Below, piece by piece: positions 94-288 of a stretch of 324 nt of DNA (position 1 is the first letter of the stretch; every line of letters begins with the position of its first letter). This DNA is from Escherichia coli (GTDB taxonomy: Bacteria; Pseudomonadota; Gammaproteobacteria; Enterobacterales; Enterobacteriaceae). The DNA lies in assembly GCF_003334385.1 (NCBI RefSeq), contig NZ_QOWN01000205.1, one strand, 5' to 3'. The notes below the pieces were generated by a model that was given only the letters and a program-made list of their open reading frames with translations, was not told the DNA's origin and ran no database searches. Position numbers and translations under genes: made by a program.

Positions 94-288
94 ATGACAT
101 TTGTTCATCAGGTGATGCTGTACTTCTGTACGGCAGTCTGTGTTATGTATCTTCTTTCGGGTGGGTACAGGGCAGTGCGCGATTTCTGGCGCAGACAGAT
201 TGATAAAAGGGCCGCTGAGAAAATCAGCGCCAGTCAGTCAGCCGGAACAAAAACAGAAGCCCCACTCATTCCGGAACAACCTTCTTAA
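94..288 (+). CDS. Hypothetical small single-pass membrane protein, 64 aa
   Basis: Complete ORF running from ATG 94 to TAA 286-288, with an in-frame TAA at 85-87 immediately upstream, so ATG 94 is the first possible start. Residues 3-22 (FVHQVMLYFCTAVCVMYLLS) form an uninterrupted hydrophobic stretch of transmembrane length. It is followed by a cluster of basic residues (R26, R29, R33, R34, K38, R39), consistent with the positive-inside rule, i.e. N-terminus out and C-terminal tail cytoplasmic. The tail is hydrophilic and ends in a Pro-containing segment (APLIPEQPS). A purine-rich Shine-Dalgarno-like element lies 3-4 nt upstream. No competing ORF is present on the reverse strand. No homology search was possible. 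Confidence 0.6.
   Translation: MTFVHQVMLYFCTAVCVMYLLSGGYRAVRDFWRRQIDKRAAEKISASQSAGTKTEAPLIPEQPS
100..159 (+). other. Predicted transmembrane helix (residues 3-22 of the 64-aa ORF)
   Basis: Twenty consecutive mostly hydrophobic or aromatic residues, with no charged residue except a single His. They are bounded downstream by a GG-Y-R motif and a basic juxtamembrane stretch (RAVRDFWRRQIDKR). Judged by eye, without a prediction program. Confidence 0.55.

Follow-up and report, generated by a model that had tools for sequence, protein, structure and literature searches.

Do two cysteines spaced four residues apart in the predicted transmembrane helix of a small phage protein serve the protein through their thiols, or are the two positions kept for some other reason? 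The question is raised by a stretch of Escherichia coli DNA of 324 nucleotides (here, the window), the sole substantial open reading frame (ORF) of which, on the plus strand, encodes the product MTFVHQVMLYFCTAVCVMYLLSGGYRAVRDFWRRQIDKRAAEKISASQSAGTKTEAPLIPEQPS. Codons 12 to 16 of this ORF read TGT (127-129, Cys), ACG (130-132, Thr), GCA (133-135, Ala), GTC (136-138, Val), and TGT (139-141, Cys). The initial annotation singled out this C-T-A-V-C motif as a paired-cysteine element within the membrane, and direct reading of the window and the ORF bears out both its coordinates and the cysteine pair exactly. The features of the window are collected in Table 1.

Table 1. Features located in the 324-nucleotide window and the evidence for each
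Feature	Positions	Strand	Evidence
Shine-Dalgarno-like region ACGGTAAGAAACT before the ATG	80..93	+	Equal spacing in homologs
Complete DUF1378 (PF07125 / phrog_494) gene (64 codons and a stop) for a small protein predicted to be bitopic in the membrane	94..288	+	Profile matches, pN/pS
Predicted transmembrane helix, approximately residues 3-25, with a strongly conserved core from L9 to Y25	100..168	+	Hydropathy, AlphaFold2, conservation
C12-T-A-V-C16 motif; family-wide form [C/S]12-x3-[C/S]16	127..141	+	Direct reading, homolog variation
Basic C-terminal tail, putatively cytoplasmic; end variable, probably disordered	169..288	+	Sequence, AlphaFold2
Start of the DUF826 gene, which leaves the window at its end	314..324	+	Annotation of prophage locus L001 (8314-8604); phrog_311 match of the translation

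The gene belongs to a known family, DUF1378, and had been annotated as such before. Its product matches the Pfam DUF1378 model (PF07125) over the full length of the model (positions 1 to 59 of 59; E = 7.4e-35) as well as phrog_494 (E = 1.5e-36), and the ORF is 100% identical to genes annotated in RefSeq as "DUF1378 family protein" in E. coli lambdoid prophages. Purifying selection acts on the DUF1378 frame only: a comparison of 35 distinct DNA alleles gave a pN/pS of 0.28 for the annotated frame and of 1.6 to 1.9 for the other two. With pN/pS above 1.6 in either alternative frame, an overlapping 44-aa ORF at 69..203 was dismissed as a coding sequence. M1 and T2 are almost invariant among the homologs, which supports the start at position 94, and a purine-rich stretch (GGTAAG, AAGG, or GGAG) is found at an equal distance from the start in the lambdoid, Mu-like, and Stenotrophomonas phage homologs. 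Searches with the ORF of NCBIfam and of the sequence profiles of the PDB returned no match, none of the PADLOC models of antiphage defense families matched it at E values up to 1, and the window had no match in Rfam. No functional study of DUF1378 was found in the literature searched. The sole paper found that mentions the family notes the DUF826 and DUF1378 ORFs merely as present between nanS-p and S and terms the holins of that region P21-type pinholins (PMC10462455). A second text match in the literature turned out to be a misprint for DUF1738.

Several further nucleotide patterns were observed in the window. A 14-codon upstream ORF at 53-97 (encoding MKTVLIVNRNGKKL followed by a stop) ends in a TGA that overlaps the DUF1378 start, as ATGA at 94-97. 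It is present in phage phi24B as MKTVLIVNNNGKKL, again followed by a stop, and absent before the Ser12, Ser16, and Mu-like alleles described below; it lacks an obvious Shine-Dalgarno sequence and is probably a chance occurrence. Within the DUF1378 ORF lies a 10-nucleotide inverted repeat with 90% complementarity (186-195 and 224-233), and the minus strand of the ORF has two terminator-like patterns (229-213 and 277-259). Altogether, three terminator-like sites were found in the window, compared with 0.2 expected from shuffled sequences.

Homologs of the protein are few. When 1.84 billion representatives of clusters at 50% identity were scanned in full with HMMER, 13 matches resulted, and profile and word-based searches returned 114 and 380 proteins, respectively, nearly all of them from E. 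coli or Shigella. The DUF1378 family is narrow and young, and for that reason conservation within it is weak evidence. A weak match to a highly repetitive 455-aa protein (P0123; E = 7e-6 over seven stretches) runs through a basic repeat resembling RREIEKKSA and almost certainly reflects composition rather than homology.

Among the homologs, Cys occupies both positions in most sequences, and is the majority residue at each of them in all clades, down to approximately 40% identity (39 to 47% for the homologs P0124 and P0126). The retained cysteines are encoded by both TGT and TGC, that is, the codons have undergone synonymous changes, which indicates that Cys is actively retained. The invariance of both cysteines had been proposed as a check on their importance, and neither of them proved to be invariant: Ser is found at position 12, at position 16, or at both. 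Among 101 distinct E. coli and Shigella sequences, the residues at positions 12 and 16 are Cys/Cys in 79, Ser/Cys in 18, Cys/Ser in 2, and Cys/Trp and Gly/Cys in 1 each; in a second clade, Cys/Ser accounts for 8 of 36 distinct sequences. Ser12 is encoded by AGT and occurs in backgrounds that are otherwise identical to those of Cys12 alleles (for example, P0020 compared with P0050), and these alleles are located in intact-looking lambdoid and Stx1 prophages. An exact 57-mer carrying Ser12 was found in 8 of 5,426 complete E. coli genomes, and an unbiased DNA pattern applied to IMG/VR viral contigs recovered Cys/Cys in all 114 genuine DUF1378 matches. When weighted by contigs, the share of Ser12 rises to 31%, a figure inflated by genomes that have several copies and were probably sampled clonally; one assembly, for example, has three.

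Ser16 is found, as AGT, in one lambdoid allele (P0087; 94 contigs) and is the usual form in Mu-like prophages, where one such allele (P0147) occurs in 861 index blocks. The Mu-like-type clade of DUF1378 is present in 172 complete E. coli genomes; Ser16 was found in the query allele and in both of the matches sampled from a band of 155 genomes at 95 to 99% identity. E. coli 2018-166, a strain with a 100% match to the window, has a second, Mu-like-type paralog with Cys12 and Ser16 (WP_000144787.1; NZ_CP075632.1, 2466160-2466342), so that the Cys/Cys and Cys/Ser forms coexist in one cell. Ser at both positions, encoded by AGC and TCG, characterizes the protein of Stenotrophomonas phages BUCT708 and BUCT709 (MTNVQMGLLYFSVVVSALYLVAGGYKSIRAYFQKKFDDAVAAKASETTEK), which matches phrog_494 (E = 3.8e-26) and keeps the remainder of the motif, LLYF-S-VVV-S-ALYLVAGGYK.

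Every replacement of Cys that is seen on more than one contig is to Ser, the exceptions, Gly12 and Trp16, being confined to single contigs. At least five apparently independent replacements were counted, all of them to Ser, with codons AGT, AGC, and TCG. Ser represents only 2 of the 7 nonstop single-step neighbors of TGT, and both routes are transversions; replacement by Ser alone, set against this mutational expectation of about 2/7, speaks against neutrality and suggests that selection favors a side chain that is small and weakly polar. Free substitution of the cysteines had been named as the outcome that would speak against a role of the pair: natural replacement does occur, but almost only Ser is tolerated. 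The suggestion that the pair mediates metal coordination, disulfide formation, or acylation fares similarly, in that the two positions are constrained but the Ser alleles argue against an obligatory role of the thiols; given natural Ser at either or both positions, the thiol appears to be dispensable. Some database entries (P0092, P0120, and P0066) are frameshifted or read-through DUF1378 products that enter the spacer or the DUF826 frame, with P0120 ending in NPMSEINLWSLLKQ; these are likely to be sequencing or assembly errors or decaying copies.

Whether the two residues face the same way depends on the helix in which they are placed. The Kyte-Doolittle mean over 19 residues reaches its maximum, 1.81, at residues 3-21, and AlphaFold2, run with an alignment of 21 sequences, predicted one continuous helix for residues 2-53, with pLDDT values of 81 to 86 for residues 1-20 (the best part) and below 50 for residues 48-59. 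By hydropathy and AlphaFold2, then, a separation of Cys12 and Cys16 by one turn of a helix that spans the membrane is plausible, and the earlier placement of the pair, at i and i+4, on the same face of a single-pass helix is a reasonable one. Basic residues crowd the C-terminal flank (R26, R29, R33, R34, K38, R39, and K43) and the N-terminus is uncharged, which, under the positive-inside rule, points to an N-out/C-in topology. DUF1378 is thus probably a bitopic protein of the inner membrane, with a periplasmic N-terminus and a cytoplasmic basic tail; membrane insertion of the protein itself is what these predictions suggest.

The helix is conserved nearly all round. L9, V15, L20, G23, G24, and Y25 are invariant across the homologs, as is R29 beyond the core; Y10, F11, C12, L18, Y19, and S22 are nearly invariant; and free variation within the core of residues 9-25 is confined to positions 14, 17, and 21. 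The conservation vector of this helix is directed toward the side on which L9, C12, C16, Y19, and G23 lie. The helical conservation moment is not significant in a permutation test (p = 0.27 to 0.34), and a distinct packing face or stripe is accordingly not demonstrated. Conservation of this kind would fit a helix that packs with further helices, be they from other copies of the protein or from a partner.

How unusual is the pair by itself? The initial annotation called paired cysteines in one helix uncommon. For a 21-residue helix, a simple binomial estimate with an assumed Cys frequency of 1 to 3% gives a probability of C-x3-C of approximately 0.002 to 0.015 per helix, in line with that statement, but many such pairs are expected genome-wide. 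Because the motif was chosen post hoc and because of this genome-wide expectation, C-x3-C in a single sequence is not significant. The element that goes beyond chance is the conservation of Cys at positions 12 and 16 across the homologs.

The genomic contexts of DUF1378 bear on the setting in which the helix would act. The window DNA is 100% identical to a chromosomal prophage in several E. coli strains, and a related copy is found in approximately 1,000 of the 5,426 complete E. coli genomes, at a median of two places per genome. In strain 2018-166, DUF1378 stands in the series antiterminator Q, tRNA-Ile, tRNA-Arg, tRNA-Arg, an esterase of the SASA family (NanS-p type), DUF1378, and DUF826, followed by a class II holin, lysozyme, antirepressor, Rz-type lysis protein, and terminase. 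The Stx phages phi24B, BP-4795, and POCJ13 have the same DUF1378 neighborhood as 2018-166. In the late lambdoid region, DUF1378 lies, as looked for, between the NanS-p esterase and DUF826. The lysozyme encoded nearby has an Ala/Gly-rich N-terminal segment and, judging from this segment, would be of the SAR endolysin type. A fusion of DUF1378 and DUF826 modeled by AlphaFold2 with a linked paired alignment gave a pTM of 0.25 and a pLDDT below that of the monomer and thus no support for a complex, although the test, whose output lists no contacts, is a weak one. The prophage of locus L001 (4736-4985 and 5975-7954), in which the SASA esterase, DUF1378, DUF826, class II holin, and lysozyme genes follow one another, has a Q-to-S region with the tRNA-Ile/Arg/Arg cluster and nanS-p and without stx genes, which makes it a stx-less relative of Stx phages; no signal peptide was seen at the N-terminus of its NanS-p.

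Outside the lambdoid phages, the trio of SASA esterase, DUF1378, and DUF826 occurs in Mu-like prophages, between the tail-fiber/invertase genes and com/mom (loci L003, L007, L010, L220, and L222 to L225). Its presence in both lambdoid and Mu-like phages implies that the cassette moves between unrelated phage types. A Mu-like phage bearing the trio was also seen inserted into Stx phages, with a target-site duplication. Solo copies of DUF1378 include one located after a tail-fiber assembly gene and one in the isolated Stenotrophomonas phages BUCT708/709. In BUCT709 (OM816835.1), the lysis cassette is of the phage 21 type: an ORF for an S21-like pinholin is followed by the gene for a SAR-type lysozyme, by Rz, within which Rz1 is embedded, and, last, by DUF1378 (4001-4153), the ATG of which overlaps the stop codon of Rz. 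The pinholin-like ORF, of 71 aa, is unannotated (locus L002, 2721-2936), lies directly 5' of the lysozyme gene, and shows clear similarity to S21-type pinholins (including GQWAAIGVIGSLVFTALTLFVNIYFKW); the Rz1-like ORF is embedded at 3697-3891. DUF1378 is probably a late-expressed accessory cargo gene of phages that repeatedly comes to lie near pinholin and SAR endolysin genes.

Taken with the allele data, we consider it moderately probable that Cys12 and Cys16 represent two small, weakly polar structural positions in the transmembrane helix of DUF1378, at which thiols are not required. Selection would then keep a side chain of the size of Cys or Ser at both positions, most plausibly for the sake of helix geometry or helix-helix packing in a core that is constrained on nearly all sides, and an obligatory metal site, disulfide, or acyl attachment would not be involved. 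The protein itself would act at the membrane late in the phage cycle, as its neighbors suggest. The packing role of positions 12 and 16 is the part of this account that we infer from the pattern of conservation.

Other accounts were weighed against the same observations. We regard it as unlikely that the thiols are functional in the Cys-bearing majority, in a disulfide or redox switch or as a soft-metal pair, with the Ser variants having lost or bypassed the function. The strong predominance of Cys, kept through synonymous TGT/TGC changes across clades, the i/i+4 spacing that places both thiols on one predicted helix face, and the rarity of Ser12 among complete E. coli genomes together with the uniformity of the IMG/VR matches would all agree with such a function; yet the Ser alleles reside in otherwise intact and widespread prophages without a compensating change in the protein, an isolated phage (BUCT709) has Ser at both positions, and a single strain holds a Cys/Cys copy along with a Cys/Ser copy. 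Furthermore, in a helix that spans the bilayer in the N-out/C-in orientation, residues 12 and 16 would come to lie about halfway through the membrane, away from DsbA in the periplasm and ill placed for oxidation by it. To our knowledge, S-acylation of transmembrane cysteines is not an established modification in E. coli. A rather low probability is assigned to the converse proposal, that the cysteines have no specific role, were inherited from a recent ancestor, and persist under general purifying selection on the helix. Such inheritance is consistent with the extreme narrowness of the family, with a core in which other residues are conserved as strongly as the cysteines or more so, including six that are invariant where C12 and C16 are not, and with the nonsignificant periodicity of conservation along the helix, but the convergence of all independent replacements on Ser, where about 2/7 would be expected per event, counts against it.

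Two further explanations concern the nucleotide sequence and protein processing. A scan for terminator patterns identified an 8-bp stem with a TTCT loop at 116-135 on the plus strand, within the ORF (codons 8-14), and the segment 100-150 of the window has a minimum free energy of -14.4 kcal/mol (z = -2.39). All eight pairs are preserved in every allele of the lambdoid clade despite six transitions. The loop contains the site of the Cys12-to-Ser change (T127A), so an mRNA hairpin might be thought to account for part of the nucleotide conservation around codon 12. We find this very improbable: in the Mu-like and Stenotrophomonas alleles, the hairpin is reduced to 3 to 7 of its 8 pairs, yet Cys or Ser is kept at position 12; no double compensatory change was seen in the stem among the compared alleles; codon 16 lies outside the stem; and the hairpin is probably a by-product of the codons that specify the conserved L-Y-F-C-T peptide. 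Virtually no weight is given to the possibility that the protein has a lipoprotein signal peptide, with Cys12 or Cys16 as the residue that receives the lipid. A hydrophobic N-terminal segment followed by Cys superficially resembles such a peptide, but the lipobox consensus is [LVI][ASTVI][GAS]C, to which neither LYF-C nor TAV-C conforms, a basic n-region is absent (the hydrophobic segment is preceded by neither Lys nor Arg), and the site would be lost in the Ser12 and Ser16 alleles; DUF1378 was therefore rejected as a lipoprotein. Finally, we hold it to be quite doubtful that DUF1378 is a single-helix regulator of pinholin/SAR endolysin lysis, in the manner of an antiholin-like or releasin-like timing factor, or a late-expressed membrane accessory of the NanS-p/DUF826 cassette, with the mid-membrane Cys/Ser pair forming part of an oligomerization or partner surface. 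If so, lineages that have kept the cysteines might gain sensitivity to redox conditions from them.

Returning to the reading of Cys12 and Cys16 as small structural positions, the cysteine pair appears, as far as comparison of sequences can tell, to be a real feature and not an obligatory functional motif. The pair had been offered as a specific mutational target. Because Cys and Ser alleles occur naturally at both positions, even within one strain, a Cys-to-Ser test alone is unlikely to be informative, and the invariant residues L9, V15, L20, G23, G24, Y25, and R29 are judged to be better targets. The finding on the cysteine pair is of small consequence in itself; the more useful lead is DUF1378, a conserved predicted membrane protein encoded beside the lysis genes of Stx phages. 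Hundreds of lambdoid prophages, Stx-converting ones among them, have the gene, as do Mu-like prophages of pathogenic E. coli, and in its lambdoid setting it directly adjoins the genes that release Shiga toxin by lysis.

Compared with the prophage proteins of PF07125 and PHROG 494, the window ORF is a plain member, with a full-length match, the same neighborhood, and no difference. Among characterized phage proteins, one point of reference is the second transmembrane domain (TMD2) of the pinholin S21, which adopts an N-out/C-in orientation and packs via small-residue motifs. Like S21, DUF1378 is a small phage protein, in its case a predicted membrane protein, encoded beside a SAR-type endolysin gene, and in both a helix rich in small residues precedes a basic tail that is cytoplasmic in S21 and putatively so in DUF1378. 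However, S21 has two helices whereas DUF1378 has one hydrophobic segment, and the phages that bear DUF1378 already encode a pinholin of their own. Profile comparison with the adjacent pinholin gave an hhalign probability of 0.2%, and no holin PHROG was matched; with no detectable homology and a single hydrophobic segment, assignment of DUF1378 to the class II holins or pinholins (Phage_holin_2_1) was rejected.

The Mu releasin gp25 (DUF2730) resembles DUF1378 in architecture, by hydropathy and charge distribution: as annotated in the Mu record, gp25 has a single N-terminal transmembrane segment in the N-out/C-in orientation and a helical cytoplasmic part. It is encoded after the spanins of a SAR endolysin cassette, as is DUF1378 in BUCT709. 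Conversely, gp25 is 99 aa long, with a longer cytoplasmic domain than that of DUF1378, and, unlike gp25, the DUF1378 of Mu-like prophages is encoded near com/mom, outside the lysis cassette. No homology between the two was detected (hhalign probability, 0.15%), and gp25 was rejected as a homolog.

For the cysteine pair itself, the natural comparison is with membrane proteins that bind soft metals, such as Ctr1 with its M-x3-M motif, MerT and MerF with their Cys pairs, and P-type ATPases with CPC, in all of which the ligands are functionally required. DUF1378 shares with these motifs the presence of two sulfur-containing side chains one turn apart on a transmembrane helix, in its case a predicted one, but differs in that either or both residues are naturally Ser, and there is neither homology nor a metal-related neighboring gene. 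A second parallel is the lambda holin S105, in which Cys51, a transmembrane residue, can be oxidized to yield a disulfide-linked dimer, although the protein remains functional with Ser in its place. S105 belongs to another family and has three transmembrane helices with a single Cys; it nevertheless offers, as DUF1378 would by prediction, a small phage membrane protein in which a transmembrane cysteine is replaceable by Ser.
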